A DNA stretch of 64,000 bases from Candidatus Saccharimonadales bacterium (lineage in GTDB: Bacteria > Patescibacteriota > Saccharimonadia > Saccharimonadales > UBA4665): positions 5,726 to 69,725 of the forward strand of contig JAXLZZ010000008.1 of assembly GCA_046350675.1 (NCBI GenBank), in the 5' to 3' direction. This document shows positions 31,860 to 54,651 of the stretch, one piece after another. Under the pieces are notes generated by a model, which saw only the letters and a list, made by a program, of their open reading frames with translations, was not told the DNA's origin and made no database searches. The translations under genes were made by a program, and so were the position numbers. Within the stretch, counting starts at the first letter, position 1; every line of letters begins with the position of its first letter.

Positions 31860-31890
<31 letters not shown>

Positions 31891-33572: not shown

Positions 33573-34087
33573 CCAATCCATATCTTCGGTGCTATGCTTA
33601 GCCCCGTTACATTTTCCGCGCGAGATCTCTTGACGAGTGAGCTGTTACGCACTCTTTAAATGAATGGCTGCTTCTAAGCCAACATCCTCGTTGTTTAAGA
33701 AATCTCACCTCGTTTCCCACTTAGCATAGACTTAGGGACCTTAGATGATGGTCTGGGCTGTTTCCCTTTTGAGCGACGAGCTTAGCCCCGCCGTTCTAAC
33801 TGCTGTAGTTCCACAGATGGTATTCGTAGTTTGTCAAGGGTGGGTAATCGTAAGACCCCCAGTCCGAAACAGAGCTCTACCCCCATCTGCTACCGTACAA
33901 CGCTAGCCCTAAAGCTATTTCGAGGAGAACCAGCTATCTCCGAGTTCGATTGGCATTTCACCTCTAACCACAGGTCATCCGGGCATTTTGAAACATGCTA
34001 CGGTTCGGCCCTCCACGCAGTTTTACCTGCGCTTCAGCCTGCCCATGGTTAGGTCACCCGGTTTCGGGTCTATTTATTGCTACTAAC

Positions 34088-34250
34088 GGGGTCTTATGGC
34101 TACCGGAATTGTCGTGAGAACTAAAATCAGTTGCCTGAAATTGCGGAAAATTTTTGAGGCGTATTGCATAATACGTCTCGGCAAATTTTACACAATTTAC
34201 AGACTCTGATTTTTGCTCTCGCGGTTCAATTCAGGCAGTCATAAGACCCC
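34088..34250 (-). other. 23S insertion 3, a long hairpin of about 145 extra nt (domain II, E. coli CUUAACUGGGCGUUAAG hairpin position)
   Basis: ggggtcttatggctaccgg pairs with (c)ggcagtcataagacccc. The interior has nested inverted repeats, with apical hairpin gaggcgtattgcataatacgtctc. Confidence 0.65.
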
Positions 34251-34605
34251 TTCGGCCTATTCAGCCTCGCTTTCACTACGCCTACGACAAATGTCTTAAG
34301 CTTGCAACAACAAATAACTCGCTGGATCGTTCTACAAAAAGCACGCCGTCACCAATAAATTGGCTCCGACTCCTTGTACGCACATAATTTCAGGATCTAT
34401 TTCACTCCCCTTCCGGGGTTCTTTTAACCTTTCCCTCACGGTACTTGTACACTATCGATCGTAAGATATATTTAGCCTTGGAAGGTGGACCTTCCAGATT
34501 CAATCAGGGTTTCACGTGTCCCGACCTACTCGACACTAGAAATGATAAAGTTCGTAACATTTGGCGTACCGGGCTATCACCGTCTTTGGCCAGACTTTCC
34601 AGACT

Positions 34606-34905
34606 GTTCTGCTCACATTACGAATTTCTTACTTTATGAGAATGGTGGTAGCACTCTCCTCCTTATGCAGGTTGCCGGCCGAAACCGGCCGCCCACAAAA
34701 GGGTATTTCTAGGTCACAACCCCTGGCTTGCATTCAGCTACCACTTTATTCAAGTGTCGCTTCACTCAAGAATTTTCAATTTACAAATAGCAATTTACAA
34801 ATAATTGACCAATGATCATTGATAATTCAATGAAAATTGAACATTGAGAATTGTTAATTGTTTGCTTGAAAAGTCCAGTGCGAAGCACTACTTGAAAGCA
34901 AACTA
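34606..34905 (-). other. 23S insertion 4, about 265 extra nt in domain I (between GCGAGCGAAC..-type and UCUGGAAAG-type conserved blocks)
   Basis: About 300 nt here against about 35 nt in E. coli. It contains caatttaca twice and a GC hairpin gccggccgaaaccggccgc. No ORF. Confidence 0.6.
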
Positions 34906-35629
34906 GGTTTGGGCTCATCCGCGTTCGCTCGCCACTACTTACGGAATCATTGGTTATTTTCTCTTCCTCTGGGTACTAAGATGTTTCAGTTCCCCAGCTT
35001 ACCGCTCTCCGATTCTATATATTCAAACCGGCGCCACTGGACATAACTCCAGCGAGGTTTCCCCATTCGGACATCTTCGGATCAAAGCATAGTAGGCTGC
35101 TCCCCGAAGCTTATCGCAGCTCCTCACGTCCTTCATCGGTATCTTACGTCAAGGCATTCTTTATGCGCGCTTGAGTAACTTTTTACGTTATATATGCACC
35201 AACCCGAAAGGATTGATACATACAGTGCAATTGACTAGTTATTGGTGATCCCAAAATATTTTTCATTTTACAGTTATCATTTACCGAATTAGTTGCCAGT
35301 TCCCATTTGTCATTTCTGAAAATGGTAATTTGAACAATAATTGGTTAATGAGAATTGCGTAAATGGTAATTGTTTAGGCCAATAGCCGTTTGTCTAATAG
35401 ATATACATACGAAAAAAATGTATATCTCAAATTGCTTATCTCTGAATCAATCTGCAAAAATTGATTCAATTTCTTCTATGAATTGTTAAGTTGCGAAACT
35501 CAAGAGGTTGTATCTGTTGACGCACATAAAAGTGCCACCCATCTATAACCCTTGAAGCTTGAGTTTACGATTGATTCCGCCTGGTGTATCCCCTACGGGC
35601 ATCTACCTAAACTCAAGCGACTCCAACTA

Positions 35630-36591: not shown

Positions 36592-39500
36592 TTACTCGAC
36601 GATGAAGTAGTCGAAGGTATACGTGGTATTAGGCGCCAGGGTCTGACCGGTGCTGAGCATGAAGTCGTTGACCGTCTTGCCCTTAGGATAGATGCGGGAG
36701 TTGACGCTGTTATCATCCTGGCCGGTCAGCAACACTTTAGGCGTCTTGCCGAAGACCTTGCTGAAGTCCACCTTGGTCAAGTCGCCAGCACTGACCCCTG
36801 TTGCACCGGTGGTAATGGTAATTGTGCCCGAGGTGTCATTACCGTCGATATTGACCGCCGCACCACTGCCGGCTGCCGTCAGGATATTACCCACCGGCGC
36901 CCCGCCCTTGGTAATGATATGTCCACTGACTTCTATATCAGCAACCTTAAGCGTGGTAACTGTTAGCGTGCCTTCAATATCGGCGTCACCTGTAACTGTT
37001 AGGGCAGCTATGCTTGCGCTATTGGTTACGGTTAAGCTGCCGGTGGTTGCAGACCCAGCTACAGATAAATCTCCGTCTATCGCAGCGTTACTTGTTACAT
37101 TAAGCGATTGAAGCGTGCTGGTCCCTGAAGCGTTTAAACCACCGCTAAAGCTGGCAGTGCCACTGTTCGAGATATTAGTGCTATTAAGTTGAGCGGTACT
37201 AAAGCTGGTGTTATAGCCATTTAGCTTGTTGACGATGGCCTTTTCACCGCCCCATAGGTAGCCATAGACACTGAACCAATCGGGTTGCGGGTTACCGTTG
37301 CTGTCGTTTGTTGGCGTTAGATTCGCAGGTAAATATTCTGATATTACGCCGGTACGTACCCCCGCCGCCCCGTCATTCCATTCGTAGTTAAATATAGGAG
37401 TTGCAGATATTTCACCCAGAATGCGATCAAGATTTACTTCGTCTATCTGGTTGATATTGTGCTTGTAGTTTTGTGAGCTAGAACAGTTAGATAGTATGTT
37501 TGAGCCATTCCTACACACGGGATTACCTGCTCCGCCAGCAACTAGACTAGTCTGAATTATGCCCGTAACGATTAAGTTTTGACCGACATTAGTATCAGCT
37601 CCGGAGTTTAGGCTACCCACTGCGGTAACATAGCCTGCGGCAATTATCCAGTTATCAGAGAAAATACCAGATCCTGCCCTCAGGTAAGTCGAAGATTTGA
37701 TGTAAGTACCGTCATTATACAGGTAAGCACCGGATTGGCCGCTAAGCCAAAATGAACCACCCAAAAACAGTCCGGTATTAGAGTACAGGCCATAGGAGTT
37801 GTGCGAACCGAGGTACCAACTCGTCTGATCGCCGCCGCCCAAATCTGTACGACCCGGATATATGTATCCAGCCGTTCGCAAACCACCAGATCCAAGATAT
37901 GCAACATGGGTTCCACCGGTGTTATTTGCTAAGAACTGTATCCAGCCAGATTTAGTGTATAACTCGTTGTAGGTGCCGCCACCATAAGCTATGTTTTGAC
38001 TAGCACTCTGTAAATATGACCCTGTGTTTATAGCGCCCGTGGAACTTATAGTGCTGGAGCCAGTTACAGCGCCAGTCACGGCTAGGGTTGATGAAATAGC
38101 CGCTGTGCCGGAGACTTGCAGTGTGGCGCCACCGCTGGTCACTGATGAGCCGATACCGACTTCTCCCGTTGAAGCAACAACTAAGCGTCGTGTCAGCGAG
38201 GTGTCAGAAGTTAGTGATTTGGTAGCAATATACACATTACCCGCACCACCGCCAGCGCTATTAGCCTGTATATCAGTACCGATGCTGGCGTATCTTCCTA
38301 TGTTGGTGTCGGCAACAGCGCCAAGCACTACTTCACCGCCGCCGTTAACTGTAAAGCTATTATTAGTGAGCAAGATACGAGCGTCCTTTTGGCCGACTGT
38401 GGTCGAAGTCGTTGCTGGGCCAGTAACAGTTAGCGTATTACCAAGACTCGTTGTGCTGGTAACTGCAAGTGTACTCTGTAGCGTGGTTGCCCCGGCTACG
38501 ACGAGAGCATCATCGGTCTTTAGGGTGTTGCTAGTAGAGCGATATAGATTGGTATCTGTACCGAATGTTATGCCAGTACTAGCTGTTCCGCCAGTTCCTC
38601 CGAGCTGTAATGAGTAAGTGTCAGCTGCCCCAATATAGATACCGACGTCACTAGATCCAGCTGTCTGAGGGTCAACATATATTCCATAATTATTGGTTAT
38701 TGTACCTCCACCGCTATTTATTGCAGCCTGGGCATATAGACCGTACGCTGTACTAATTGTGCCTGTGCTGCTATTTTGTATAACACCGTTTACTCCGTAA
38801 GCATTACTAATACTTCCGGTATTTGAATTAGTGATTATCCCGCGCACACCGTAGCCAGAACCCAAAGTAGCACCGGCAACAGTGTTTTGGGTATTTCCGT
38901 AAATACCAAACAACCTAGAATTTGCATTCACATTTGTGTTGCCTACAGTTGTATTACTTGTGAATGATACAAAGTCTGTCAGAGATCCAGGTGCGCTTGC
39001 TGGCGACACTGTCAAATTATTTGATGTCATTGTATTTACACCAGAAATTGCAGTACTTGTAAGCGATAAGGTGTTGCTTGATCCAGATACTGTTATGCCA
39101 GCTTGTCCAGTGATTGAGCCCACCACAGATAAAGAGTCGTCTGTTTTTAATGTATCCGCCGCGGAGCGGTAAAGGTTCGTATCACCGCCAATTGTTATGC
39201 CGGTGTTTGAGCCAGTTGATGAAAGTTGCAATGTTGTTTTACCGCCAGCGTTGCTTACGGTCAAAGCCGAGCCAGTACTGACCGTACCAGAAGCCGAAGT
39301 GAGTGTTAGAGCGGCGCTGCCACCTGACTGAATGCTCAAGTAACCTGTGCTGCTTAGACTTCCGTCAGATAAAGTGGTGCTGCCAGCACCAACCACCACA
39401 CCGCCGAGGAAATAACCCTGGAAGAAACGGTTACTTTGGGTTGCGTAATCGTTAGCGCTGGTAACAGCACCGATATTCTGAGCCGTGTATTTAGTGATCG

Positions 39501-42500
39501 TCGCATTTCCTGTGAATCCAGCCGTCGTGCCATAACTGACCGCCGGACTAATTGTAAGTGTGGTCGTGCCACCACCCGCGGTGATGCGAGTATAGTAATC
39601 TTGTCCGCTACCGCCGGTGTTATCTACAAAAATAATATCGCCATTCGCAAAAGCGCCGGCCGCAGACAGTGTAATAGTTGTAACATTTGTGCCTCCCGTG
39701 CCGCTGGTTGTACCCGTAGTGCCAGTCGCCACCGCATTGGCTACCAGGTCGCCGTTAGCAATCAGCTTATTGTTGCTGGTTGTATCAGCTGTAAATAGTG
39801 CATTGCCGCCGGAATTTTGAATCTGGAATTTAGTAGCGCTATTGCCCCCAGCGGCACCGCCTATCATAAGCGCATCGTCGGTGGTTAAAGTGTCTGCTGC
39901 ACTGCGGTAGAGGTTGGTGTCGCCACCGATAGTGATGCCTGTGTTACTGCCAGTTGAGCTGAGTTGTAGTGTTGTCTTACCGCCGTTGTTGCTGATATCC
40001 ACGGCCGACCCCGTGCCAACCGTTCCCGAGGCGGAGGTCAGCGTCAATTGACTGCTGCCGCCCGACGCGACTGCGAGCGCGCCATTGGCTGTGAGGTTAA
40101 GTGAGGTGCCAAGGCTAACGGTATTTGAGCCACCTTGTAGCGTAAGGTTACCAATAGTGGTGCTAATAGTGCTGGCTGCGCCAGCCGTGACAGTGATAGC
40201 GCTCGCGCTCACGAGACTGATAGCTCCGGCTGCGCTGTTGCCAATGCTCACGGTGCCGGTGCTTGTACCGGTGTTGATATTAGTGTTGTTGTTGCTGTTA
40301 TTGTTGAGCTGGACGGTGCCGCCGGCGATTGTGCTAGCACCGGTAATTGTCGCGCCGCCAGCCGAGACAGTCAGGCCACCACTGGTAACGGTCGCGCCGC
40401 TAGCTACCGTCAGTGTACCGGCAATCGTAGAACTACCGATGCCATTGACAGTTAGAACGCCTGCTTGAACACTATCACCTGCTTCGTTGACGCTGTACTT
40501 ACTGCTGCCATTGACCTGTAGATTGATCAAGTTGCCGGTAAAACCATTGGCAGCGTTAATCACCGTGTTGCCGGCGTAGGTCAAGGTGGTGCCAGACTCG
40601 CTCAGACCAGAGTCTGCAACGGTGTTAGAAGCAGTAAACTTGGCCAATTTGCCCGGGGTACCGCTACCCAGCACGCCGCCGCCCGTACCTGCACAGTTGG
40701 CCAGAGTCAGCAGACAGACGGTGTCACTAGAGCCACCGGCGATACTCGGGAGCTGGATGGTGGCGTTACCGGTGCCGGTAGGATTCAAGCCCTGTAGCAC
40801 GACTAGTCGTGAGGATGTGGAGTTGGCCAGATTCAAGCTACCTGTGACCGATGCGCCAACGCCAAGCGTCAGTCCGCCTGCTCCCTGCACCGCCACCGTA
40901 CCCGTAAAGTTAGCGCTGCTACTGATAGTCTGGCCGTTGATTAGACCGGAAGTGATAGTTCCGCTGCCGGCATTGATGTTGGCGTTGTTGGTGACAATAC
41001 CCCCATTGGCATTGAGTTGACCAGTCAAGGTGGTGGCACCGGTTACGGCTAGGGTTGATGAAATAGCCGCTGTGCCGGAGACTTGCAGTGTGGCGCCACC
41101 GCTGGTCACTGATGAGCCGATACCGACTTCTCCCGTTGAAGCAACAACTAAGCGTCGTGTCAGCGAGGTGTCAGAAGTTAGTGATTTGGTAGCAATATAC
41201 ACATTACCCGCACCACCGCCAGCGCTATTAGCCTGTATATCAGTACCGATGCTGGCGTATCTTCCTATGTTGGTGTCGGCAACAGCGCCAAGCACTACTT
41301 CACCGCCGCCGTTAACTGTAAAGCTATTATTAGTGAGCAAGATACGAGCGTCCTTTTGGCCGACTGTGGTCGAAGTCGTTGCTGGGCCAGTAACAGTTAG
41401 CGTATTACCAAGACTCGTTGTGCTGGTAACTGCAAGTGTACTCTGTAGCGTGGTTGCCCCGGCTACGACGAGAGCATCATCGGTCTTAAGCGTGTCGGCA
41501 GCTGAGCGGTAGAGGTTGGTGTCAGTGCCGATAAGCAGTCCCCCCGAAGAGCCAGTGGCCAGCACGCTCAAGCGGCCGTTGGAGTCAATGGTTAGTCTCT
41601 GAGCACCGGCGGTCTCGTCGGATATCGAGAAGGTACCGGCACGCGAACCAACCACAAACTGTCGACCCGTTCCTGACGCAGTATCACTGAAGTACATGCT
41701 GGCAGCGTTCCAGACTACAGAGCTGTCGCCCGTCAGTTCAATCGGGCCGCCCTGGACACCAAACTTGCTGCCACCGCTATAGCCACCGACCGATAAGTAG
41801 CCACCGATGGCGGCGTTGTTCGTAACAGATAGGGCCGTACCTGCTGCACTGAAGGTATTGGCAGCACTAAAGTTGTTGGCTTGGTTCAAGTAGGCCACAT
41901 TATTGAGGGTGCCTGCGGTGTTGATGTTGGCCCCACCCAGCTGGATGGCGCCGGTGGCGTTGAAAGTGCCGGTAGCCGTTATCACGCTGCCACTTTCACT
42001 CAACAATGAGTCACCAATCGTCCCAGCACCGGTGAACTTAGCAATCGTGCCGGTAGTACCGCTGCCGGTGATGCCACCGCCACTGCCAGCACAGTTGCCC
42101 AGGGTGACAAGACAGACATCATCAGTTGAGCCACCGGCGATAGTCGGAATACGAATGGTGGCATTACCAGTACCACTTGGGTTAAGACCCTGAATGATAA
42201 CCTGTCGTGAAGATGATGAGTTTGCTAGGTAGAGACTGCCGGCAGTGGTACCTGGTGTACCAATACTGACACTAGCTCCTTGGACAGCCAGGGTGCCGGT
42301 GAAGACAGGGCTACTGACAATGTCGAGCGTATTGCTGCTGAAGCCACCACCAGCGGTGCCGCTGACCGTACCAGTCAGATTACCGCTGCCGGTGAAGCTC
42401 AGGCTAGTGTTACCTTGGGCGGCGGTGCCGCTGGTAGAACCGTAACTCACATTAAGCGTTGTGCTACTACCAAGAGCTACACTACCACCGCCGGTCAAGC

Positions 42501-45500
42501 CAGTACCAGCAGTAACAGTGAGAGCACCGCTACCTACCAGACGAGCGTTGGCGACAGTGCCGGTTGTAATAGCGGTACCGTTGAGGTTTGTTAGAGCTGA
42601 AGCATTGAGTGCTGGCAAGTAGCCTGAGCCATCAAGCTGTACGAGCTGGTTAGCGCCGTTGAAGGTGTTGCCCTGGAGCGTAACGTTGCTGCTGAGATAG
42701 GTGTCTCCGACCGTACCAGAGCTGATGTTGCTGCCGTTGAGGTTCGTTATACCTGAGCCATTGCCAGTGAAGGTATTGCTACCAATGTTGATATTGCCAA
42801 ACCCACTAGCGATGCTACCAGCACTCAGGGCTCCGGTGCCGGTGATGTTGCTGAAGGTACCAGCCTGCAAATCGGCGTTGACAATTGCGCCGGTACTCAA
42901 CACCCCACTCCCATTGGTGTGGACGACACCGGCGCTGTTAAGGCCAGAGAAAGTGATGGTGCCAGCGGCGGTCAAGCCACCACTGATACTAGCACCGCCG
43001 GTTGTAACACTGAGAGCTCCATTGAGAGTTAGGCCAGCAAAGGTTGGTGTGGCAGCAGTGCTGATGCCTTGGATAGTGTTGACCGTACCACTACTGACAC
43101 TGAAGTTAGTACTGTTGAACTGGGCGATGCCCTTCTGTGAAGTTGAAGCGTCGTCGATGGTGATGGTGCCAGCCGAACCGCTGGAGTTGGCTAGAGTCAG
43201 TACGCCGGTCTGGCCATCCAGACTGGTCACGCCACCGCCGGCGCCGCCAGTACAAGCGGCGAAGCTCAAAACGCCGGAACCATTAGACTGAAGGCAGTCG
43301 CCGTTCGCTCCCGCTGTGGTTGGCAGGGTGAGTGTGAAGGTAGAGCCCGAAACGCCGGACTGGAGCGTCACGGTATTACCATTGGTAGCATTCTTGAAGG
43401 CGATAGAACCTGTGTTTGTGCTAGCGGTGCCCAGTGTTAGGCTGCCACTACCTTGCACTACAACACTGCCCGAGGCCGTCACCACACTGCCCGACTCACT
43501 CAAGCTGGAATCGGCGATAGTGCCGCTACCAGTAAACTTAGCAATCTGGCCGCTCGTGCCAGAGCCAGTGATACCGCCACCACTACCGGCACAGTTGCCT
43601 AGAGTTACCAGGCAGACATCATCAGTACTACCACCAGCTATGCTTGGGATTCTAATGGTGGCATTACCGGTACCACTTGGGTTTAGACCTTGCAGTATGA
43701 CTTGGCGGGAGGAGCTAGCATTAGCTAGGTATAAGCTACCAGCTGTAGTACCTGGTGTACCAATACTGACACTAGCTCCTTGGACAGCCAGGGTGCCAGT
43801 GAAGTTCGCACTGGAGCTGATGGTTTGGCCGTTATAGGTGCCACCGGTGACGGTGCTAGCTACAGCAAGTGTGCCAGTGAAATTAGCGGCACTAGAGATA
43901 GTCTGACCATTGATGTTGCCAGAAGTGATAGTGCCACCAATACTCACGTCATTCGTCACACTCAACGCCGTACCAGCCGCACTGAAGGTATTGGCTGCAC
44001 TGAAGTTATTAGCTTGGTTCAAGTAGGCGACGTTGGTAAGCGTGCCTGCTGTATTGATGTCTGCGCCACCAAGCTGTAATGCGGTCGTGGCATTGACGGT
44101 ACCGCCCTGGACGGTAGCAGTGGTAGTGATGTTATTGCCTGTAGAGATAGTGCCAAACCCACTAGCGATGCTACCAGCACTCAGGGCTCCGGTGCCGGTG
44201 ATGTTGCTGAAGGTACCGCTGGCTAGGTTGCTATTGGTGATCTTACCATTGACGATGGCACTGCCGTTGTACTGGAGGACATCACCACTGCTTATTGAGC
44301 TGATGGTCAGTGTAGTACCTTGGAGCTTGGCAATGGTTGGGTTTGGATAGGTGCCGGTTAGGTCACCACCAGCTGCACCAGAAGCACCGGCACAGTTGCC
44401 AAGGGTGTAGAGACACACCGTATCTGTACTACCACCAGCTATGGTTGGGAATTGGATGGTGGCATTCCCCGTACCGCTTGGGTTTAAGCCCTGTAGGATG
44501 ACTTGGCGAGATGAGCTAGAGTTGGCGAGGTAGAGTGAGCCAGTAGTGGTACCTGGTGTACCAATACTGACACTAGCTCCTTGGACAGCTAGGGTACCGG
44601 TGAAGACAGGGCTACTGACAATGTCGAGCGTATTGCTGCTGAAGCCACCACCAGCGGTGCCGCTGACCGTACCAGTCAGATTACCGCTGCCGGTGAAGCT
44701 CAGGCTAGTGTTACCTTGGGCGGCGGTGCCGGCCCCACTGCCATAGGTGACACTCAACGTCGGCGTGCTGCCTGCTCCGCTGTTGCCAGTGGTACTGAGG
44801 CCGGTGAGTGTACCGAGAGTGGCCACGTAGTTACCCGTGGTCTCTGAGCCCAGAGCTACAGCGCCGGTACTCAACACCCCACTCCCATTGGTGTGGACGA
44901 CACCGGCGCTGTTAAGGCCAGAGAAAGTGATGGTGCCAGCGGCGGTCAAGCCACCACTGATACTAGCACCGCCGGTTGTAACACTGAGAGCTCCATTGAG
45001 AGTTAGGCCAGCAAAGGTTGGTGTGGCAGCAGTGCTGATGCCTTGGATAGTGTTGACCGTACCACTACTGACACTGAAGTTAGTACTGTTGAACTGGGCG
45101 ATGCCCTTCTGTGAAGTTGAAGCGTCGTCGATGGTGATGGTGCCAGCCGAACCGCTGGAGTTGGCTAGAGTCAGTACGCCGGTCTGGCCATCCAGACTGG
45201 TCACGCCACCGCCGGCGCCGCCAGTACAAGCGGCGAAGCTCAAAACGCCGGAACCATTAGACTGAAGGCAGTCGCCGTTCGCTCCCGCTGTGGTTGGCAG
45301 GGTGAGTGTGAAGGTAGAGCCCGAAACGCCGGACTGGAGCGTCACGGTATTACCATTGGTAGCATTCTTGAAGGCGATAGAACCTGTGTTTGTGCTAGCG
45401 GTGCCCAGTGTTAGGCTGCCACTACCTTGCACTACAACACTGCCCGAGGCCGTCACCACACTGCCCGACTCACTCAAGCTGGAATCGGCGATAGTGCCGC

Positions 45501-48500
45501 TACCAGTAAACTTAGCAATCTGGCCGCTCGTGCCAGAGCCAGTGATACCGCCACCACTACCGGCACAGTTGCCTAGAGTTACCAGGCAGACATCATCAGT
45601 ACTACCACCAGCTATGCTTGGGATTCTAATGGTGGCATTACCGGTACCACTTGGGTTTAGACCTTGCAGTATGACTTGGCGGGAGGAGCTAGCATTAGCT
45701 AGGTATAAGCTACCAGCTGTAGTACCTGGTGTACCAATACTGACACTAGCTCCTTGGACAGCCAGGGTGCCAGTGAAGTTCGCACTGGAGCTGATGGTTT
45801 GGCCGTTATAGGTGCCACCGGTGACGGTGCTAGCTACAGCAAGTGTGCCAGTGAAATTAGCGGCACTAGAGATAGTCTGACCATTGATGTTGCCAGAAGT
45901 GATAGTGCCACCAATACTCACGTCATTCGTCACACTCAACGCCGTACCAGCCGCACTGAAGGTATTGGCTGCACTGAAGTTATTAGCTTGGTTCAAGTAG
46001 GCGACGTTGGTAAGCGTGCCTGCTGTATTGATGTCTGCGCCACCAAGCTGTAATGCGGTCGTGGCATTGACGGTACCGCCCTGGACGGTAGCAGTGGTAG
46101 TGATGTTATTGCCTGTAGAGATAGTGCCAAACCCACTAGCGATGCTACCAGCACTCAGGGCTCCGGTGCCGGTGATGTTGCTGAAGGTACCGCTGGCTAG
46201 GTTGCTATTGGTGATCTTACCATTGACGATGGCACTGCCGTTGTACTGGAGGACATCACCACTGCTTATTGAGCTGATGGTCAGTGTAGTACCTTGGAGC
46301 TTGGCAATGGTTGGGTTTGGATAGGTGCCGGTTAGGTCACCACCAGCTGCACCAGAAGCACCGGCACAGTTGCCAAGGGTGTAGAGACACACCGTATCTG
46401 TACTACCACCAGCTATGGTTGGGAATTGGATGGTGGCATTCCCCGTACCGCTTGGGTTTAAGCCCTGTAGGATGACTTGGCGAGATGAGCTAGAGTTGGC
46501 GAGGTAGAGTGAGCCAGTAGTGGTACCTGGTGTACCAATACTGACACTAGCTCCTTGGACAGCTAGGGTACCGGTGAAGACAGGGCTACTGACAATGTCG
46601 AGCGTATTGCTGCTGAAGCCACCACCAGCGGTGCCGCTGACCGTACCAGTCAGATTACCGCTGCCGGTGAAGCTCAGGCTAGTGTTACCTTGGGCGGCGG
46701 TGCCGCTGGTAGAACCGTAACTCACATTAAGCGTTGTGCTACTACCAAGAGCTACACTACCACCGCCGGTCAAGCCAGTACCAGCAGTAACAGTGAGAGC
46801 ACCGCTACCTACCAGACGAGCGTTGGCGACAGTGCCGGTTGTAATAGCGGTACCGTTGAGGTTTGTTAGAGCTGAAGCATTGAGTGCTGGCAAGTAGCCT
46901 GAGCCATCAAGCTGTACGAGCTGGTTAGCGCCGTTGAAGGTGTTGCCCTGGAGCGTAACGTTGCTGCTGAGATAGGTGTCTCCGACCGTACCAGAGCTGA
47001 TGTTGCTGCCGTTGAGGTTCGTTATACCTGAGCCATTGCCAGTGAAGGTATTGCTACCAATGTTGATATTGCCAAACCCACTAGCGATGCTACCAGCACT
47101 CAGGGCTCCGGTGCCGGTGATGTTGCTGAAGGTACCGCTGGCTAGGTTGCTATTGGTGATCTTACCATTGACGATGGCACTGCCGTTGTACTGGAGGACA
47201 TCACCACTGCTTATTGAGCTGATGGTCAGTGTAGTACCTTGGAGCTTGGCAATGGTTGGGTTTGGATAGGTGCCGGTTAGGTCACCACCAGCTGCACCAG
47301 AAGCACCGGCACAGTTGCCAAGGGTGTAGAGACACACCGTATCTGTACTACCACCAGCTATGGTTGGGAATTGGATGGTGGCATTCCCCGTACCGCTTGG
47401 GTTTAAGCCCTGTAGGATGACTTGGCGAGATGAGCTAGAGTTGGCGAGGTAGAGTGAGCCAGTAGTGGTACCTGGTGTACCAATACTGACACTAGCTCCT
47501 TGGACAGCTAGGGTACCGGTGAAGACAGGGCTACTGACAATGTCGAGCGTATTGCTGCTGAAGCCACCACCAGCGGTGCCGCTGACCGTACCAGTCAGAT
47601 TACCGCTGCCGGTGAAGCTCAGGCTAGTGTTACCTTGGGCGGCGGTGCCGGCCCCACTGCCATAGGTGACACTCAACGTCGGCGTGCTGCCTGCTCCGCT
47701 GTTGCCAGTGGTACTGAGGCCGGTGAGTGTACCGAGAGTGGCCACGTAGTTACCCGTGGTCTCTGAGCCCAGAGCTACAGCGCCGGTACTCAACACCCCA
47801 CTCCCATTGGTGTGGACGACACCGGCGCTGTTAAGGCCAGAGAAAGTGATGGTGCCAGCGGCGGTCAAGCCACCACTGATACTAGCACCGCCGGTTGTAA
47901 CACTGAGAGCTCCATTGAGAGTTAGGCCAGCAAAGGTTGGTGTGGCAGCAGTGCTGATGCCTTGGATAGTGTTGACCGTACCACTACTGACACTGAAGTT
48001 AGTACTGTTGAACTGGGCGATGCCCTTCTGTGAAGTTGAAGCGTCGTCGATGGTGATGGTGCCAGCCGAACCGCTGGAGTTGGCTAGAGTCAGTACGCCG
48101 GTCTGGCCATCCAGACTGGTCACGCCACCGCCGGCGCCGCCAGTACAACTGTCAAAGCTGAGGTTACCGCTAGCGTCCGTAATCAAGCAGTCACCGTTAG
48201 CGCCAAGATCAGTTGGCAGCGTCAGATTGAAGCTAGAATTGGCAACACCGGATTGCAACGTCACAGTGTTGGCATTAGTGTCATTGTTGAACACAATCGC
48301 CCCATTAACCGTGGAACCTACACCGAGCACCAACCCACCTCCACCCTGTGCCGTAACCGTCCCGCTAAAGGTCGGGTTATTGATAATGCTGATATCACTA
48401 CAAGCACCCCCGGACCCAAGCGTAATCACATCGCCGCCGCCGCTCAGATTGCCGGTGCCGCTGGCACAGGTCAGCGTTACGTTACCCTGGACGGCCGTGC

Positions 48501-51375
48501 CGGCCCCACTGCCATAGGTGACACTCAACGTCGGTGTACTGCCTGCTCCACTGTTGCCAGTGGTACTGAGGCCGGTGAGTGTACCGAGAGTGGCCACGTA
48601 GTTACCAGTGGTTTCAGTGCCGAGAACTACCGAGCCGGTGCTCAGATTACCAGATCCATCAGCCCGCACTACGCCGCCACTGTTCAAGCTAGAGAAGGTG
48701 ATGGTTCCGGTTGCAGAGAGGCCGCCAGCCGCAACAGTCAAGCCGGTACCAACATCCAAGCTGCCGGCCACATTGGTATTACCATTGACATCCAGTTTGT
48801 AACTGGCGCCCGGGCTACTGGTAGCCACCCCGATTGAGGTGCCGTTATCGTAGAGCAAGGAATTGCCAAGCTGATTAGCACCAGCGTTAGTAAACTTTGG
48901 AATGTAAAATTGCGTGCCGCCACTGACCGTCACGCCACCACCCGAACCGACACAGTTGCCAAGGTTGAGTAGACAGACCGTATCACTGGCTACGCTGGAC
49001 ACCGGAATAGTTATCGTTTGGTTCTGCCCGGCAGGTGCCAGGGCCTGCAAGGTCGTAAAGTGGCTGTTGCTCGCGTTATAGAAAGTCAGGCTGCCGGCAG
49101 TCGTACTGGCCACGCCCAGACTCAAGCCGGCGCTACCCTGTACGCTGGCCCCACCGCTGGTCACCACATTACCTGAGCCATCCACCGTGAAGCTACCGCC
49201 AGCGATGCTCAGCGTACCGCCTTGCATCGCGGCCGTCGTAGAGATAGCGTTACCGGTTGAGATACTACCGAAGCCCGAAGCGATGCTGCCACTGGTAAGC
49301 GCGCCAGTCGTCGTGATATTGCCTTGCACGGCCGTCGGCAAAGTCTGGCTCAGGCTCGGCACGCTTGAACCGTTGGTGACCAGTACGCTGTTGGCTGCTG
49401 ACGCGGTCACTTGCAGCGCCGAGGTACCATTGCCGTAAAGGATGCCGTTAAGAGTTAAGTTGTTAGCGCCGGTACCACCGTTCGCTACGCTCAACTCACT
49501 GGTAAAGTAACTGGTGCTATTACGATCAACCACGCCACTCGTCAGATTACCGCTCCCATCGCTGTATAGTAGCCCGGCACCATAACTACTGAACTGTACC
49601 GCCCCACCGACCGTTAAATCGTTAGCCACACTCAGGGCATCGCCGACCGTCAGCGTGCCAGCGATCGACGAAGTACCGCTGCCATTCACCGTCAGCGTGC
49701 CGCCGTGAATGATATTGCCCAGCTGATCGACACTCAGCTTGCTGCTCCCATTGACTGCTAAGTTCAGCAGGTTGCCAGTGAAGCCGCTGGCGGCGTTGAC
49801 GATCAGGTTGCCGCCATACGTCAAGCTGGTACCGGACTCCGTCAGATTCGAATCGGTGATATCGCCCGACGCATCGAACTTGGCGATGTGACCGATGGTA
49901 CCGAAACCAGTGATACCACTACCGGCACCGGCACAGTTACCGGTCGTCAGACAGATGCCCACCGACGCAACGCCAGGATCCGGCAGGATGTAGGTCGTGT
50001 TCTGGCCGAGCACCGCCGATTGAATCGTGCCGACGTAGGCATTGCTGCTGTTCGCAAAACTGATTGATCCATTGGATGTGCCTGGTTGGCCCAAGTTAAG
50101 CCCACTAAATGTTGGGGTTGATCCAGTAGCAATATCTTGTGGTAATGACAACGTTAGAGAACCGCTGCTTGCCGAAGCAATGACTTGATTTGCTGTACCA
50201 GTAATACTTACAACACCGGTGTTGTTAATCTGATTACCGGTGTTGCTGAGCCCTGCTCCAAGCGTAAATGCACCGCTATTACCTGCAATTGAACTAACGA
50301 TACTTGGTGCTCCCTGGACCTGGCTCCAGCCAATGGTGCCGGTAGTAATTTGCCCTGTTTGATTTACAACAAAAACATTTGTGCTGTTGTTTGCAAGTTG
50401 AAGCAAATTGCCGGTTCCTGTTTTATTGATGTTGATTGATGAGGTATTGGTAGGATCAACCTGAGCTGAACTCGGACCCAACGCAACCGTACCTCCACCG
50501 CCTGAACCCGCTACGCTCACAGTGTAATTCCCATTGCCGTCATTCCCCACGGTTAGGTCTGCCGAGGTAGATGTAAGCGTGACTACTCCGTTATTCCGGA
50601 TGGTAGTACCACTGATGCCTATGCCGGTGCCTGCCACAAGTCGAACATCACCCGTTAAGCCCTGTAGACTATTCACCCGAGGTGTGTTCAAACTGCCATT
50701 TATGTTTTGTAACAGATTGGCGGAGATGTTCAACTGACCATTCGTCATGCTAAGGGTATTGCCCAACCCGATGATGCCAGCCGCACCACCCAAGCTGGTA
50801 ACCGTCTGTGGAATAGCAGTCGGTGCCATGCTGATAAACTGCGTACCGTTGAAGTAAAACAGCGTGTTCGAAGCTTTGTCGAAGTAAATTTGACCAGCTA
50901 CCGGTGCGGATGGTGCCGAGCCCGGCGAGAGTACGAAGGTGTTTTTAACGATCAGCTGGCCATTTACTGAAAGTTTGTCGGCCTGTCCGAGTTTAAGCGT
51001 ATCATTCGGCTTGACGTCGTTCACCGAAAGTTGCGTGGCAGAATAATTAGTCTTGTTACGCTCTGCCGCTGATTTATCATCTGCCGAGGGATTATTGCCG
51101 AATAGCATAATCCCAAGAATGCCAACGACAAAAATCACAACTAGCGCTGCAGCAGTGATAAGTAAGGCACTTTTGTTGAACTTGAATAGTGAGGGGCCTT
51201 TAGGTGCAAGCTCACTCCGAGGTACCTCAAGGGCGGTTGGAGTCGGGATTACAGAGGGTTCAGAAGATGGCGATACCACAGTAGATGGCGTAGCCTGAAC
51301 AGACTGTGCTGATTTAGGCAGCTCCAATATAGCGTCATAGTCATCATTTTCTAAGCTCTTATAGCTAGGACCCAT
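36592..51375 (-). CDS. giant membrane-anchored fibre/adhesin-like surface protein (4927 aa)
   Basis: A single uninterrupted 14,784-nt ORF with one N-terminal helix (aa 69-92). It is followed by thousands of residues of G/T/S/A/N-rich repeats with recurring modules: ..LQGLNPSGTGNATIQFPTIAGGSTDTVCLYTLGNCAG.., ..LDGQTGVLTL..DDASTSQKGIAQFN.., ..TNLYRSAADTLKTDD.. The + strand shadow ORFs are P/V-rich. Confidence 0.93.
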   Translation of the reverse strand: MGPSYKSLENDDYDAILELPKSAQSVQATPSTVVSPSSEPSVIPTPTALEVPRSELAPKGPSLFKFNKSALLITAAALVVIFVVGILGIMLFGNNPSADDKSAAERNKTNYSATQLSVNDVKPNDTLKLGQADKLSVNGQLIVKNTFVLSPGSAPSAPVAGQIYFDKASNTLFYFNGTQFISMAPTAIPQTVTSLGGAAGIIGLGNTLSMTNGQLNISANLLQNINGSLNTPRVNSLQGLTGDVRLVAGTGIGISGTTIRNNGVVTLTSTSADLTVGNDGNGNYTVSVAGSGGGGTVALGPSSAQVDPTNTSSININKTGTGNLLQLANNSTNVFVVNQTGQITTGTIGWSQVQGAPSIVSSIAGNSGAFTLGAGLSNTGNQINNTGVVSITGTANQVIASASSGSLTLSLPQDIATGSTPTFSGLNLGQPGTSNGSISFANSSNAYVGTIQSAVLGQNTTYILPDPGVASVGICLTTGNCAGAGSGITGFGTIGHIAKFDASGDITDSNLTESGTSLTYGGNLIVNAASGFTGNLLNLAVNGSSKLSVDQLGNIIHGGTLTVNGSGTSSIAGTLTVGDALSVANDLTVGGAVQFSSYGAGLLYSDGSGNLTSGVVDRNSTSYFTSELSVANGGTGANNLTLNGILYGNGTSALQVTASAANSVLVTNGSSVPSLSQTLPTAVQGNITTTGALTSGSIASGFGSISTGNAISTTAAMQGGTLSIAGGSFTVDGSGNVVTSGGASVQGSAGLSLGVASTTAGSLTFYNASNSHFTTLQALAPAGQNQTITIPVSSVASDTVCLLNLGNCVGSGGGVTVSGGTQFYIPKFTNAGANQLGNSLLYDNGTSIGVATSSPGASYKLDVNGNTNVAGSLDVGTGLTVAAGGLSATGTITFSSLNSGGVVRADGSGNLSTGSVVLGTETTGNYVATLGTLTGLSTTGNSGAGSTPTLSVTYGSGAGTAVQGNVTLTCASGTGNLSGGGDVITLGSGGACSDISIINNPTFSGTVTAQGGGGLVLGVGSTVNGAIVFNNDTNANTVTLQSGVANSSFNLTLPTDLGANGDCLITDASGNLSFDSCTGGAGGGVTSLDGQTGVLTLANSSGSAGTITIDDASTSQKGIAQFNSTNFSVSSGTVNTIQGISTAATPTFAGLTLNGALSVTTGGASISGGLTAAGTITFSGLNSAGVVHTNGSGVLSTGAVALGSETTGNYVATLGTLTGLSTTGNSGAGSTPTLSVTYGSGAGTAAQGNTSLSFTGSGNLTGTVSGTAGGGFSSNTLDIVSSPVFTGTLAVQGASVSIGTPGTTTGSLYLANSSSSRQVILQGLNPSGTGNATIQFPTIAGGSTDTVCLYTLGNCAGASGAAGGDLTGTYPNPTIAKLQGTTLTISSISSGDVLQYNGSAIVNGKITNSNLASGTFSNITGTGALSAGSIASGFGNINIGSNTFTGNGSGITNLNGSNISSGTVGDTYLSSNVTLQGNTFNGANQLVQLDGSGYLPALNASALTNLNGTAITTGTVANARLVGSGALTVTAGTGLTGGGSVALGSSTTLNVSYGSTSGTAAQGNTSLSFTGSGNLTGTVSGTAGGGFSSNTLDIVSSPVFTGTLAVQGASVSIGTPGTTTGSLYLANSSSSRQVILQGLNPSGTGNATIQFPTIAGGSTDTVCLYTLGNCAGASGAAGGDLTGTYPNPTIAKLQGTTLTISSISSGDVLQYNGSAIVNGKITNSNLASGTFSNITGTGALSAGSIASGFGTISTGNNITTTATVQGGTVNATTALQLGGADINTAGTLTNVAYLNQANNFSAANTFSAAGTALSVTNDVSIGGTITSGNINGQTISSAANFTGTLAVASTVTGGTYNGQTISSSANFTGTLAVQGASVSIGTPGTTAGSLYLANASSSRQVILQGLNPSGTGNATIRIPSIAGGSTDDVCLVTLGNCAGSGGGITGSGTSGQIAKFTGSGTIADSSLSESGSVVTASGSVVVQGSGSLTLGTASTNTGSIAFKNATNGNTVTLQSGVSGSTFTLTLPTTAGANGDCLQSNGSGVLSFAACTGGAGGGVTSLDGQTGVLTLANSSGSAGTITIDDASTSQKGIAQFNSTNFSVSSGTVNTIQGISTAATPTFAGLTLNGALSVTTGGASISGGLTAAGTITFSGLNSAGVVHTNGSGVLSTGAVALGSETTGNYVATLGTLTGLSTTGNSGAGSTPTLSVTYGSGAGTAAQGNTSLSFTGSGNLTGTVSGTAGGGFSSNTLDIVSSPVFTGTLAVQGASVSIGTPGTTTGSLYLANSSSSRQVILQGLNPSGTGNATIQFPTIAGGSTDTVCLYTLGNCAGASGAAGGDLTGTYPNPTIAKLQGTTLTISSISSGDVLQYNGSAIVNGKITNSNLASGTFSNITGTGALSAGSIASGFGTISTGNNITTTATVQGGTVNATTALQLGGADINTAGTLTNVAYLNQANNFSAANTFSAAGTALSVTNDVSIGGTITSGNINGQTISSAANFTGTLAVASTVTGGTYNGQTISSSANFTGTLAVQGASVSIGTPGTTAGSLYLANASSSRQVILQGLNPSGTGNATIRIPSIAGGSTDDVCLVTLGNCAGSGGGITGSGTSGQIAKFTGSGTIADSSLSESGSVVTASGSVVVQGSGSLTLGTASTNTGSIAFKNATNGNTVTLQSGVSGSTFTLTLPTTAGANGDCLQSNGSGVLSFAACTGGAGGGVTSLDGQTGVLTLANSSGSAGTITIDDASTSQKGIAQFNSTNFSVSSGTVNTIQGISTAATPTFAGLTLNGALSVTTGGASISGGLTAAGTITFSGLNSAGVVHTNGSGVLSTGAIVNADLQAGTFSNITGTGALSAGSIASGFGNINIGSNTFTGNGSGITNLNGSNISSGTVGDTYLSSNVTLQGNTFNGANQLVQLDGSGYLPALNASALTNLNGTAITTGTVANARLVGSGALTVTAGTGLTGGGSVALGSSTTLNVSYGSTSGTAAQGNTSLSFTGSGNLTGTVSGTAGGGFSSNTLDIVSSPVFTGTLAVQGASVSIGTPGTTAGSLYLANSSSSRQVIIQGLNPSGTGNATIRIPTIAGGSTDDVCLVTLGNCAGSGGGITGSGTTGTIAKFTGAGTIGDSLLSESGSVITATGTFNATGAIQLGGANINTAGTLNNVAYLNQANNFSAANTFSAAGTALSVTNNAAIGGYLSVGGYSGGSKFGVQGGPIELTGDSSVVWNAASMYFSDTASGTGRQFVVGSRAGTFSISDETAGAQRLTIDSNGRLSVLATGSSGGLLIGTDTNLYRSAADTLKTDDALVVAGATTLQSTLAVTSTTSLGNTLTVTGPATTSTTVGQKDARILLTNNSFTVNGGGEVVLGAVADTNIGRYASIGTDIQANSAGGGAGNVYIATKSLTSDTSLTRRLVVASTGEVGIGSSVTSGGATLQVSGTAAISSTLAVTGATTLTGQLNANGGIVTNNANINAGSGTITSGLINGQTISSSANFTGTVAVQGAGGLTLGVGASVTGSLNLANSTSSRLVVLQGLNPTGTGNATIQLPSIAGGSSDTVCLLTLANCAGTGGGVLGSGTPGKLAKFTASNTVADSGLSESGTTLTYAGNTVINAANGFTGNLINLQVNGSSKYSVNEAGDSVQAGVLTVNGIGSSTIAGTLTVASGATVTSGGLTVSAGGATITGASTIAGGTVQLNNNSNNNTNINTGTSTGTVSIGNSAAGAISLVSASAITVTAGAASTISTTIGNLTLQGGSNTVSLGTSLNLTANGALAVASGGSSQLTLTSASGTVGTGSAVDISNNGGKTTLQLSSTGSNTGITIGGDTNLYRSAADTLTTDDALMIGGAAGGNSATKFQIQNSGGNALFTADTTSNNKLIANGDLVANAVATGTTGTTSGTGGTNVTTITLSAAGAFANGDIIFVDNTGGSGQDYYTRITAGGGTTTLTISPAVSYGTTAGFTGNATITKYTAQNIGAVTSANDYATQSNRFFQGYFLGGVVVGAGSTTLSDGSLSSTGYLSIQSGGSAALTLTSASGTVSTGSALTVSNAGGKTTLQLSSTGSNTGITIGGDTNLYRSAADTLKTDDSLSVVGSITGQAGITVSGSSNTLSLTSTAISGVNTMTSNNLTVSPASAPGSLTDFVSFTSNTTVGNTNVNANSRLFGIYGNTQNTVAGATLGSGYGVRGIITNSNTGSISNAYGVNGVIQNSSTGTISTAYGLYAQAAINSGGGTITNNYGIYVDPQTAGSSDVGIYIGAADTYSLQLGGTGGTASTGITFGTDTNLYRSTSNTLKTDDALVVAGATTLQSTLAVTSTTSLGNTLTVTGPATTSTTVGQKDARILLTNNSFTVNGGGEVVLGAVADTNIGRYASIGTDIQANSAGGGAGNVYIATKSLTSDTSLTRRLVVASTGEVGIGSSVTSGGATLQVSGTAAISSTLAVTGAVTGSSTISSTGAINTGSYLQSASQNIAYGGGTYNELYTKSGWIQFLANNTGGTHVAYLGSGGLRTAGYIYPGRTDLGGGDQTSWYLGSHNSYGLYSNTGLFLGGSFWLSGQSGAYLYNDGTYIKSSTYLRAGSGIFSDNWIIAAGYVTAVGSLNSGADTNVGQNLIVTGIIQTSLVAGGAGNPVCRNGSNILSNCSSSQNYKHNINQIDEVNLDRILGEISATPIFNYEWNDGAAGVRTGVISEYLPANLTPTNDSNGNPQPDWFSVYGYLWGGEKAIVNKLNGYNTSFSTAQLNSTNISNSGTASFSGGLNASGTSTLQSLNVTSNAAIDGDLSVAGSATTGSLTVTNSASIAALTVTGDADIEGTLTVTTLKVADIEVSGHIITKGGAPVGNILTAAGSGAAVNIDGNDTSGTITITTGATGVSAGDLTKVDFSKVFGKTPKVLLTGQDDNSVNSRIYPKGKTVNDFMLSTGQTLAPNTTYTFDYFIVE
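37225..37488 (-). other. peptidase S74-like intramolecular chaperone (tail-fibre/endosialidase C-terminal) motif region inside the giant protein
   Basis: NCSSSQNYKHNINQIDEVNLDRILGEISATPIFNYEWNDGAAGVRTGVISEYLPANL...SVYGYLWGGEKAIVNKL follows the S..(R/Y)K.NI / LDKIL..PV.F.Y / G.IAQE..P / V.Y..L....I.A.KEL pattern. It starts 298 aa before the C-terminus. Confidence 0.5.
38078..38520 (-). repeat. 443-nt repeat, copy A (identical by eye to 41045-41487)
   Basis: The offset is 2967 nt. Boundaries were set at the first mismatches (38077/41044 and 38521/41488). The shadow-ORF translations are identical. Confidence 0.85.
41045..41487 (-). repeat. 443-nt repeat, copy B
   Basis: See 38078-38520. Confidence 0.85.
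42244..48148 (-). repeat. 5.9-kb mosaic of near-identical modules inside the giant gene
   Basis: Three block matches:
- 42887-44731 = 44861-46705 (offset 1974).
- 44151-45229 = 47070-48148 (offset 2919).
- 42244-42861 = 46519-47136 (offset 4275, at least 2 synonymous differences).
Boundaries were set at the first mismatches. Several shadow ORFs are identical in translation. Confidence 0.85.
51100..51171 (-). other. single predicted transmembrane helix of the giant protein (aa 69-92)
   Basis: SALLITAAALVVIFVVGILGIMLF, preceded by KFNK. Confidence 0.7.
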
Positions 51376-51523: not shown

Positions 51524-52345
51524 TTATCGCAGCAGGAAGAAAATTATTGCACCGGCCAAAACGGCGGTAATAACTGCCATGAGCACCACCGAGCTAAGCG
51601 AACGAAAGATTGCATTTTTGGCAAGTGGATTGCGTCCGATAGAGATAATACTACCGTAAATTGCCCCGTAAATCAGGGTAATTAACACCGTAATAGCAAT
51701 GACCGCTACGACGATACTGATGACGATTCTGGCCGGTGATATCACCTTGCCAGTCAATGACTTTGCGAACCGTTGCAATCCTGTAAGTTCCTCGCCGTTA
51801 CCGGCTGATGTATCCGAGCCTACCCCTATCGTAATTCGCACCATGCCCACGTCAATAGAGCTGGTTTTGCCAGACTTGTCAGTCACCTGTTTGCGCACTA
51901 CACCATCGGTAGAGGAGTTCAGCTCTGTCAGAGCCAAGCCAATGACGTTCGCACCAGGGGTAGATTTCATGCCAATCCCGTCAAACGGCGAGACACTAAT
52001 CAAATCTCCGACCTTTATGGGTCCGTTGAGCGTACTTGCCAACACCGTAGCAGATCCAGTTGTAGCAACCTGTACTTTCCCACCTTGAGAATCAACTGCC
52101 AACAGCGAGTCCTCACTCTTCACGGCCACGCCAAAAAGCTGCGAGCCATTGGCAGTATTTGCTAGTTGCACATAGCCAGATTTACTGGGGTCAAGACTTA
52201 CAAGACTGCTATCTGGGATATCTTGGCTGGTTTTGTATGCTTTTGATATTTCAGCTGCAATCGCGCCGGCTACAGATACGCCTGCGACTAACAGGAATAC
52301 GCTCACCACTGTAAGTACATGCCGATAGCGGCGCAACACCTTCAT
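51524..52345 (-). CDS. membrane protein (N-terminal signal/anchor, extracytoplasmic domain, two C-terminal helices), directly upstream of the giant gene
   Basis: MKVLRRYRHVLTVVSVFLLVAGVSVAGA... and C-terminal IVISIVVAVIAITVLITLIYG / VVLMAVITAVLAGAIIFFLL. Confidence 0.75.
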   Translation of the reverse strand: MKVLRRYRHVLTVVSVFLLVAGVSVAGAIAAEISKAYKTSQDIPDSSLVSLDPSKSGYVQLANTANGSQLFGVAVKSEDSLLAVDSQGGKVQVATTGSATVLASTLNGPIKVGDLISVSPFDGIGMKSTPGANVIGLALTELNSSTDGVVRKQVTDKSGKTSSIDVGMVRITIGVGSDTSAGNGEELTGLQRFAKSLTGKVISPARIVISIVVAVIAITVLITLIYGAIYGSIISIGRNPLAKNAIFRSLSSVVLMAVITAVLAGAIIFFLLR

Positions 52346-54380: not shown

Positions 54381-54411
54381 CAAAATAAAAAACATCTCGC
54401 GGTGAGATGTT
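54381..54411 (-). terminator. intrinsic terminator after tRNA-Ile
   Basis: Minus strand AACATCTC-accgc-GAGATGTT followed by TTTTATTTTG. Confidence 0.7.
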
Positions 54412-54418
54412 TATATTT

Positions 54419-54495
54419 TGGTGGGCGATGAGGGATTCGAACCTCCGACCTCGTCATTATCAGTGACGCGCTCTAACCAACTGAGCTAATCGCCC
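54419..54495 (-). tRNA. tRNA-Ile (anticodon GAU), CCA encoded
   Basis: The reverse complement is gggcgattagctcagttggttagagcgcgtcaCTGATAAtgacgaggtcggaggttcgaatccctcatcgcccacca. It forms a cloverleaf with an acceptor of 7 bp. My fold leaves one A-C mismatch in the T stem. Confidence 0.9.
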
Positions 54496-54651
54496 TGGCT
54501 TTTGTTTTACAAAAGCAATTATCAGATAGCAATTTTCATTTTTCAAGTATGGCCAGCTGGTGCTGATACTATTATTTCAAAAGCCAGCGGCTTTTGTCCT
54601 ACATTGGTAAATGAGAATTGTAAATTGTTAATTGCTTTACGTAGTAAAGCT

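Follow-up and report, generated by a model that had tools for sequence, protein, structure and literature searches.

Nested kilobase-scale repeat mosaic in a giant gene for a predicted surface fibre of a Saccharimonadales bacterium

A giant open reading frame (ORF) lies between the 16S and the 23S-5S rRNA genes of a Candidatus Saccharimonadales bacterium (Patescibacteriota; GenBank assembly GCA_046350675.1, contig JAXLZZ010000008.1), with all of these genes on one strand and the rRNA genes 21 kb apart. It is 14.8 kb long and uninterrupted. We analysed it within a stretch of 64,000 nt (positions 5,726 to 69,725 of the contig, forward strand), which we call the window; coordinates refer to the window unless a relative's locus is named. 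An earlier inspection of the letters and their translated ORFs (the sequence-only reading) had described kilobase-scale modules, nearly identical and shuffled, inside this gene. We compared these modules by computation, and we compared the locus with those of relatives.

36592-51375, minus strand: giant ORF of 4,927 amino acids (from the ORF list and translation), holding every repeat described below

Identical blocks and their order

The identical blocks within 42244-48148, the modules (a to g) that make them up, and one further repeat of the same gene are as follows.

42887-44731 and 44861-46705, minus strand: two copies of a 1,845-nt block (modules d e c f a), 1845/1845 identical, offset 1,974 nt
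42887-44860, minus strand: 1,974-nt tandem unit (modules d e c f a g), which contains copy 1 of the 1,845-nt block
44151-45229 and 47070-48148, minus strand: two copies of a 1,079-nt block (modules c f a g d), 1079/1079 identical
42244-42861 and 46519-47136, minus strand: two copies of a 618-nt block (modules a b c), 616/618 identical (99.7%)
46520-47464, minus strand: extra period of 945 nt (modules a b c f); at offset 945, self-BLAST matched 46120-46705 with 47065-47650
42862-42886, minus strand: spacer x, 25 nt, residues 2830-2838 (AIVNADLQA)
38069-38564 and 41036-41531, minus strand: further intragenic repeat, 96.8% identical, in frame
38078-38520 and 41045-41487, minus strand: exact 443-nt core of the further repeat (self-BLAST and segmentation)

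Module a: 186 nt, 4 copies
Module b: 364 nt, 2 copies
Module c: 67 nt, 4 copies
Module d: 369 nt, 3 copies
Module e: 895 nt, 2 copies
Module f: 328 nt, 3 copies
Module g: 129 nt, 2 copies

Exact repeat finding and computed alignment gave identities of 99.7-100%, not substantially lower than those inferred by eye. The 1,845-nt match with its period of 1,974 nt and the 1,079-nt match, both read by eye as exact, were identical over their full length. The 618-nt match, also read as exact, kept its coordinates but not its full identity. By direct comparison, none of the three blocks could be extended by a single base beyond the ends given in the sequence-only reading. The two mismatches of the 618-nt block, at 42289 and 42295, are in third-codon positions (CTG/CTA for Leu and GGC/GGT for Gly) and are synonymous, as had been noted for the few differences seen. 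A copy-specific difference is also present at 44150 versus 47069. A 180-nt segment said to recur at 42245, 44546, 46520 and 47465 was found at all four places; the last three copies are identical, and the copy at 42245 carries two differences.

According to self-BLAST and 20-mer segmentation, the modules follow one another on the plus strand as a b c x d e c f a g d e c f a b c f a g d; in the reading direction of the gene, this becomes D G A F C B A F C E D G A F C E D X C B A. The string proposed by eye, P-Q1-T-R-S-T-U-P-Q2-R-S-T-U-P-Q1-T-U-P-Q2-R, corresponds exactly to the plus-strand arrangement, with the addition of spacer x, the sole stretch within 42244-48148 that occurs only once. The arrangement as a whole is a nested mosaic with one tandem period of 1,974 nt, rather than a simple head-to-tail array of a single unit. 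With a period limit of 500, Tandem Repeats Finder reported only trivial 18-nt arrays. The repeat offsets (945, 1974, 2919, 4275 and 4893) are all divisible by 3, so that the blocks are in frame in one ORF, where the repeat zone makes up residues 1076-3044 of the giant protein. We estimate that chance alone would give exact repeats of up to about 16 nt in a sequence of 64 kb. A chance origin is excluded because the kilobase-scale exact matches far exceed this expectation.

In the further intragenic repeat, 16 differences flank the exact 443-nt core. Twelve of the 16 are synonymous, and divergence rises progressively with distance from the core. This pair looks like a gene-conversion tract.

Probable origin of the mosaic by homologous recombination

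Every joint in the mosaic falls in a short segment that is common to the alternative neighbours. The alternative joint sequences are homologous at both the DNA and the protein level; for example, ...LSVTYGSGA and ...LNVSYGSTS are both followed by GTAAQGN. At most block ends, a stretch of 60 nt suffices for identity to drop from 100% to about 30%. As judged from these alignments, abrupt identity cliffs with joints in shared segments are the product of unequal crossing-over or gene conversion. The sequence-only reading had suggested either process, and the in-frame identical copies, the cliffs and the position of the joints all bear it out.

The best explanation, to which we give a probability of roughly 75%, is ordinary homologous recombination among the repeats and between lineages in a surface-fibre gene, with no programmed system. 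Old, diverged repeat domains would have built the fibre gene. More recently, homologous recombination would have acted between stretches of 67-369 nt still common to these domains, by unequal sister-strand exchange or by template-switching repair. The pathway would be of the RecA type, operating among diverged repeats.

Two events could account for the present order: a tandem duplication of the 1,974-nt unit, and an insertion of 945 nt whose source lies about 4 kb off. The 945-nt piece might have arrived by two unequal crossovers, the first duplicating at A and the second deleting at C, or by a single template-switching repair that copied a-b-c from about 4 kb away. Without one period of 1,974 nt (G A F C E D) and one of 945 nt (B A F C), the order reduces to D G A F C E D X C B A. 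Together, the two events amount to 2,919 nt, or 973 residues, in frame and within the predicted extracellular stalk. The module a in 46519-47136 is chimeric: its left end has bases of the a2/a4 type, and the remainder runs into b. Because the inserted a has this a2/a4-type left end yet continues into b, the insertion crossover in module a can be placed within at most 135 nt, at 42296-42430 (= 46571-46705). The other joint lies within at most 67 nt in module c.

Copy number of the kilobase-scale modules would be expected to vary at the population level, and strains are likely, as a consequence, to differ in the length of the fibre and in the modules that it contains.

Exchange between lineages at the 5' part of the gene

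Loci of relatives carry labels of the form L005, L006, L008, L009 and L014-L017; L014-L016 are three independent assemblies from three ENA samples. The comparison with these loci marked two features.

49534-50061, minus strand: segment of 528 nt common to another species (L014/L015/L016), 99.4% identical
50046-50061, minus strand: crossover zone; the match to L005 ends at 50046 and the match to the L014 lineage begins at 50061

The sister strain L005 (run SRR7877888) encodes an upstream protein of 273 amino acids that is identical to the one in the window. From 52494 to 50046 the two strains are 99.8% identical (5 of 2,449 nt differ), and beyond 50046 identity drops abruptly to about 65%. The flanks of the 528-nt segment are, in L014-L016, at most 71-78% identical to the window or are not alignable, and their 273-aa neighbour shows 47% identity. 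At the crossover, the window, L005 and L014 share a 12-nt motif, AGTTTTGC(G/A)AAC, which encodes Ser-Phe-Ala-Asn. In a three-way alignment the window tracks L005 until this motif and L014 from the motif onward. The segment 49534-50061 is thus an inter-lineage mosaic. The complete gene of L014 encodes 805 aa, and its stop coincides with the end of the shared segment.

The sequence-only reading had proposed a cassette-variable locus and a comparison with sister strains. The comparison placed the variability at the 5' part of the gene, at the L005 break and in the segment shared with L014-L016, rather than in the kilobase-scale modules. Products of the same locus measure 805 aa in L014, 1,787 + 1,568 aa in L006 and 4,927 aa in the window. 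A related gene in L009 encodes 2,702 aa; rRNA was not detected in the stretch fetched for L009. The reading had also warned of short-read assembly failure in such a region, and, in agreement, the contigs of L005, L008 and L017 terminate within the giant gene and most named homologues at NCBI are labelled 'partial'.

Modules would be exchanged between lineages at conserved joints that encode motifs, through the same recombination process that acts within the gene. Natural competence has been reported for Saccharibacteria (PMC10633639) and would offer a route for such exchange, as a probable source of the DNA.

The comparison with L005 also gives a rough indication of age. If the duplications were as old as the L005 split, about 6 differences would be expected over 2,919 nt, and at most one was found per pairwise block comparison. 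The duplications are probably younger than the L005 strain split: L005 shows a difference of 0.2%, and the 2,919 nt that were duplicated are essentially invariant.

Predicted product of the giant gene

Three features of the giant protein bear on its predicted nature.

51100-51171, minus strand: predicted N-terminal transmembrane anchor, residues ~69-92, LLITAAALVVIFVVGILGIMLFG
37339-37479, minus strand: sub-threshold match to Peptidase_S74 (PF13884, tail-fibre intramolecular chaperone), residues 4633-4679, 16.1 bits against a cut-off of 22
36595-36918, minus strand: conserved C-terminal domain of ~107 aa (GHIIT...DGNDTSGTITI...TYTFDYFIVE), residues 4820-4927

The protein contains 813 Gly, 737 Thr, 653 Ser, 496 Ala and 398 Asn; Gly, Thr, Ser and Ala together make up 55% of it. 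The predicted anchor, a hydrophobic helix of 23 residues, was identified by eye from the translation. The predicted topology leaves about 68 residues in the cytoplasm and about 4,830 outside. A domain of about 90 aa, present in 13 copies, ends in a cysteine pair (C-x5-6-C or C-x13-C). GC content at third codon positions along the gene ranges from 0.38 (residues 4001-4500) to 0.64 (residues 501-1000), with 0.43-0.54 in neighbouring genes; these swings are compatible with segments of mixed ancestry.

Homologues with a source name come mostly from Candidatus Saccharimonadales or from metagenome-assembled genomes of Patescibacteria, and they are labelled at source 'tail fiber domain-containing' or 'beta strand repeat-containing'. 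Three homologues, P0004, P0013 and P0087, all pass the PF13884 cut-off, with 26.3, 59 and 50 bits, respectively. Because of the predicted transmembrane helix, the names of the homologues and the S74 domain in homologues, the product is best read, by sequence comparison, as a surface fibre, tail-fibre-like and anchored in the membrane, of a bacterium of the Saccharimonadales, within the candidate phyla radiation (CPR/Patescibacteria).

About 250 residues follow the S74 match, including the conserved 107-aa terminal domain, in which an alignment across 22 homologues showed 14 invariant columns. When the C-terminal 497 aa were modelled with AlphaFold2, only the last ~107 aa were predicted with confidence (predicted local distance difference test, pLDDT, 93-97). 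Matches to the H-type lectin family (PF09458, cut-off 24 bits) were faint, scoring 12 bits for the giant protein and 19.9 bits for P0087. Foldseek matches to Helix agglutinins were weak as well (E 0.06-0.16, target-normalised TM score 0.38-0.43), and the weak Foldseek matches as a group were H-type lectins and, for the most part, phage receptor-binding proteins. The terminal domain may form a lectin-like tip. A prophage origin of the gene was considered and is unsupported, since a scan of a viral collection with the C-terminal alignment gave one weak locus.

The exact 4,927-aa protein had no record in the look-up made for it, and a scan of JGI metagenomes yielded zero relatives. The homologue search with the repeat zone returned nothing above about 77% identity. 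One candidate, L007, had been listed with a best segment at 85% and proved to be a distant relative.

Evidence against and alternative explanations

Several results count against reading this locus as a recombining surface-fibre gene. Searches of Pfam, NCBIfam and PHROGs with the whole protein gave zero matches above threshold, and neither the whole protein nor a profile of the cysteine-pair domain had a significant match in a PDB sequence search. A Foldseek search of the PDB with the C-terminal model returned none at E<=1e-3. An AlphaFold2 monomer of the 659-aa tandem unit, built on a 29-sequence alignment, had a pLDDT of 52 and was uninformative. The surface-fibre or adhesin function of the giant protein is one that we infer from the sequence features above. 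The genes of relatives have diverged internal repeats only (66-79%); most of them come from short-read assemblies, which are unable to hold identical kilobase-scale repeats. The module order and copy number of 42244-48148 rest on one assembly. Finally, the reduced scaffold D G A F C E D X C B A retains a, c and d as exact duplicates, and therefore needs further events or ongoing gene conversion.

The dependence on one assembly raises the question of an artefact. The true gene might have fewer modules or another order, with the repeat graph walked wrongly or the copies homogenised to 100%. The segments a, c and d do behave as branching nodes, like those of an unresolved repeat graph. Public short-read assemblies break within this gene family, repeat-rich giant genes tend to fragment or to be mis-assembled (10.1101/2023.11.21.568195), and the 64-kb contig nevertheless spans the repeats together with the 16S, 23S and 5S genes, although a short-read assembler would break at exact repeats of 1.8 kb. 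As the contig spans both the repeats and the rRNA genes, the source was most likely long-read data, with the 6 kb of the mosaic inside single reads. Polishing is able to erase small differences between copies, yet copy-specific differences were kept here, two in a1 and one at 44150 versus 47069. The uninterrupted 14.8-kb ORF also speaks against an artefact, though weakly, for mis-joins through identical in-frame modules would stay in frame as well. On balance, we regard an assembly artefact as unlikely.

The exact a, c and d duplicates of the scaffold would also be accounted for if old duplications had been held identical by continuing gene conversion, with copy number stable (concerted evolution). 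The pair 38078-38520/41045-41487, an exact core with progressively diverging flanks, is typical of a conversion tract. Other paralogous domain copies in the region, however, stand at 66-87% and have not been homogenised. The whole 1,974-nt period is identical, including segments that have no partner elsewhere, and one duplication explains this more simply. Moreover, the lengths of same-locus proteins vary widely, as given above, which does not fit a stable copy number. Concerted evolution as the full account is, in our judgement, decidedly improbable. Gene conversion is nonetheless probably also active in the giant gene, as the scaffold keeps the a, c and d duplicates and the 443-nt pair is conversion-like; it would act here beside the duplications that we place at the origin of the mosaic.

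Programmed variation by cassette switching (antigenic variation), by a shufflon or invertase, or by a diversity-generating retroelement is very improbable: a giant surface-exposed protein of an obligate epibiont would be a plausible target, and the alternative continuations after shared segments are superficially cassette-like, but the joints are coding homology rather than short specific sites. There were zero nucleotide or tblastn matches to the gene elsewhere in the 64-kb window that could serve as donor cassettes, and no inverted repeats of >=20 nt in the giant gene; among the 30 largest ORFs in the neighbourhood, Pfam scans detected no reverse transcriptase, invertase, or tyrosine or serine recombinase. 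With silent cassettes, inverted repeats, a recombinase and a reverse transcriptase all missing from the window, ordinary homologous recombination is favoured.

Comparison with known systems

In-frame identical repeats that resize the stalks of giant surface proteins are classic in adhesins of Gram-positive and Gram-negative bacteria. Length-variable repeat adhesins include streptococcal alpha-C/Rib, staphylococcal Aap/SasG, Ebh/Embp, enterococcal Esp and Salmonella SiiE. The present gene resembles them in its in-frame DNA repeats of near 100% identity, in an extracellular stalk (here predicted) and in the very large size of the surface protein. In both, RecA-type unequal recombination generates or resizes the repeats, by our reading in the present case, and short-read assembly fails. 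The gene differs in that composite blocks of 945 and 1,974 nt form a nested, non-tandem mosaic instead of an array of a single domain, and in that a predicted N-terminal membrane anchor takes the place of LPXTG or type-1 secretion signals. Its host belongs to the CPR, and it has no recognised adhesin domains.

Phage tail fibres and tailspikes show modular mosaicism and may carry a C-terminal Peptidase_S74 chaperone that is auto-cleaved after trimerisation. Like them, the giant protein is rich in Gly, Ser and Thr and in beta structure, has an S74-type domain near the C-terminus in its homologues, and exchanges modules at conserved joints. Phage receptor-binding proteins predominate among its weak structural matches. 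Its poor structure prediction as a monomer is as expected for intertwined trimers. Unlike tail fibres, it is encoded in a chromosomal housekeeping context and not in a prophage, has a predicted transmembrane anchor and reaches 4,927 aa. The S74 match in the protein itself is sub-threshold with ~250 residues beyond it, and the viral collection held one related locus.

In cassette antigenic variation, as in Borrelia vlsE, Neisseria pilE/pilS and Mycoplasma MgPa/MgPar, homologous recombination likewise reshuffles segments of a surface-protein gene. Those systems draw on silent donor cassettes, of which there are none outside the gene in the 64-kb window; shuffling here takes place within the ORF and between lineages.

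The extracellular proteins Giant1-5 of Apilactobacillus kunkeei and its relatives, of 3,000-8,000 aa, diversify through short intragenic recombination tracts (PMC12863079). Their domains are exchanged among distant taxa and between genera, and a beta-solenoid domain is 99.6% identical across clades (PMC12863079). The likeness lies in this mode of evolution, in the large surface protein and in the segment shared across species, here 528 nt at 99.4%. Giant1-5 belong to another phylum, with no detectable sequence relationship, and the exact intragenic kilobase-scale duplications that are prominent here are not emphasised for them (PMC12863079).

Genomic context and the rRNA locus

The window is ordinary chromosome. 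It encodes IleRS, class II ribonucleotide reductase, NrdR, FtsZ, FtsA, MAP, Adk and PriA, and further Def, Fmt, IF-2, S1, ROK and GyrA/B; all families that Pfam recognised in the 30 largest neighbouring ORFs were housekeeping ones. The rRNA genes on either side of the giant gene are placed as follows.

56462-57924, minus strand: 16S rRNA gene
31056-35185, minus strand: 23S-5S rRNA genes

L006, L008 and L017 show all or part of the order GyrB-GyrA-16S-tRNA(Ala, Ile)-273-aa ORF-giant gene (window 31056-57924; L006 4951-21559; L008 1329-12271; L017 2240-12136). In L006 the 23S-5S genes directly follow the giant gene, as in the window. Paralogues of the giant gene (L018 and L019) are elsewhere in their genomes, not beside rRNA. 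The CPR is known to include rRNA operons that are split or interrupted by protein genes, although the two Saccharimonadia genomes of one study were operonic (PMC8172020).

The ORF of about 273 aa is always just upstream of the giant gene and shows 46-47% identity in relatives (window 51524-52345; L008 8856-9677; L014 2322-3149 and 5984-6262; L017 9042-9857). It had no Pfam match. The second copy in L014 follows the shortened 805-aa gene.

The tRNA-Ala/tRNA-Ile pair of the window (54419-54728) is on the strand of the 16S gene, in the order 16S-Ala-Ile, and a terminator-like hairpin at 54390-54412 follows tRNA-Ile. The pair is on the strand opposite to 16S in L006 (6708-6881), L008 (4052-4344) and L017 (8641-8820). 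This difference suggests a local inversion.

The 23S gene (31516-35185) is 3,670 nt long, compared with 2,925 positions in the model. Relative to the 23S of L006, extra sequence is present at at least four sites (RNA positions ~280-530, 935-1100, 1613-1785 and 2289-2376). No Rfam family matched when this oversized gene was searched, by E-value, for an intron.

From 59165 downwards, the window matches L001 4020-7394, with an identical GyrA protein and 98.5% identity in DNA. L001 diverges 368 nt past gyrA, into Cpn10/GroEL-type genes in place of 16S, either by a rearrangement in a close strain or because the contig is a chimera of short reads.

Significance for Saccharimonadales

Recombination among internal repeats is the usual mode of evolution of variable surface proteins, here seen with unusual clarity, and its mechanism is textbook. 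Particular to this case are the composite, nested mosaic at the kilobase scale, the tail-fibre-like family, the CPR host, and crossovers located to the base level both within the gene and between species.

Little is known of how Saccharibacteria and other CPR bacteria recognise their host cells and attach to them; type IV pili and a few adhesins alone have genetic support (PMC10633639). A giant fibre gene that keeps its position, is hypervariable and is exchanged between species is a candidate determinant of host specificity. Since short-read metagenome assemblies systematically truncate the locus, surveys of CPR surface proteins under-count it and mis-size it.

We suggest, tentatively and with considerable doubt, that the fibre is an epibiont counterpart of the phage tail fibre, a host-recognition organelle whose length and module content could be rapidly retuned through duplications within the gene and through modules taken up from co-occurring Saccharimonadales species, at a conserved and highly transcribed position between 16S and 23S. 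If so, module shuffling would set the host range or the attachment distance of these obligate episymbionts.

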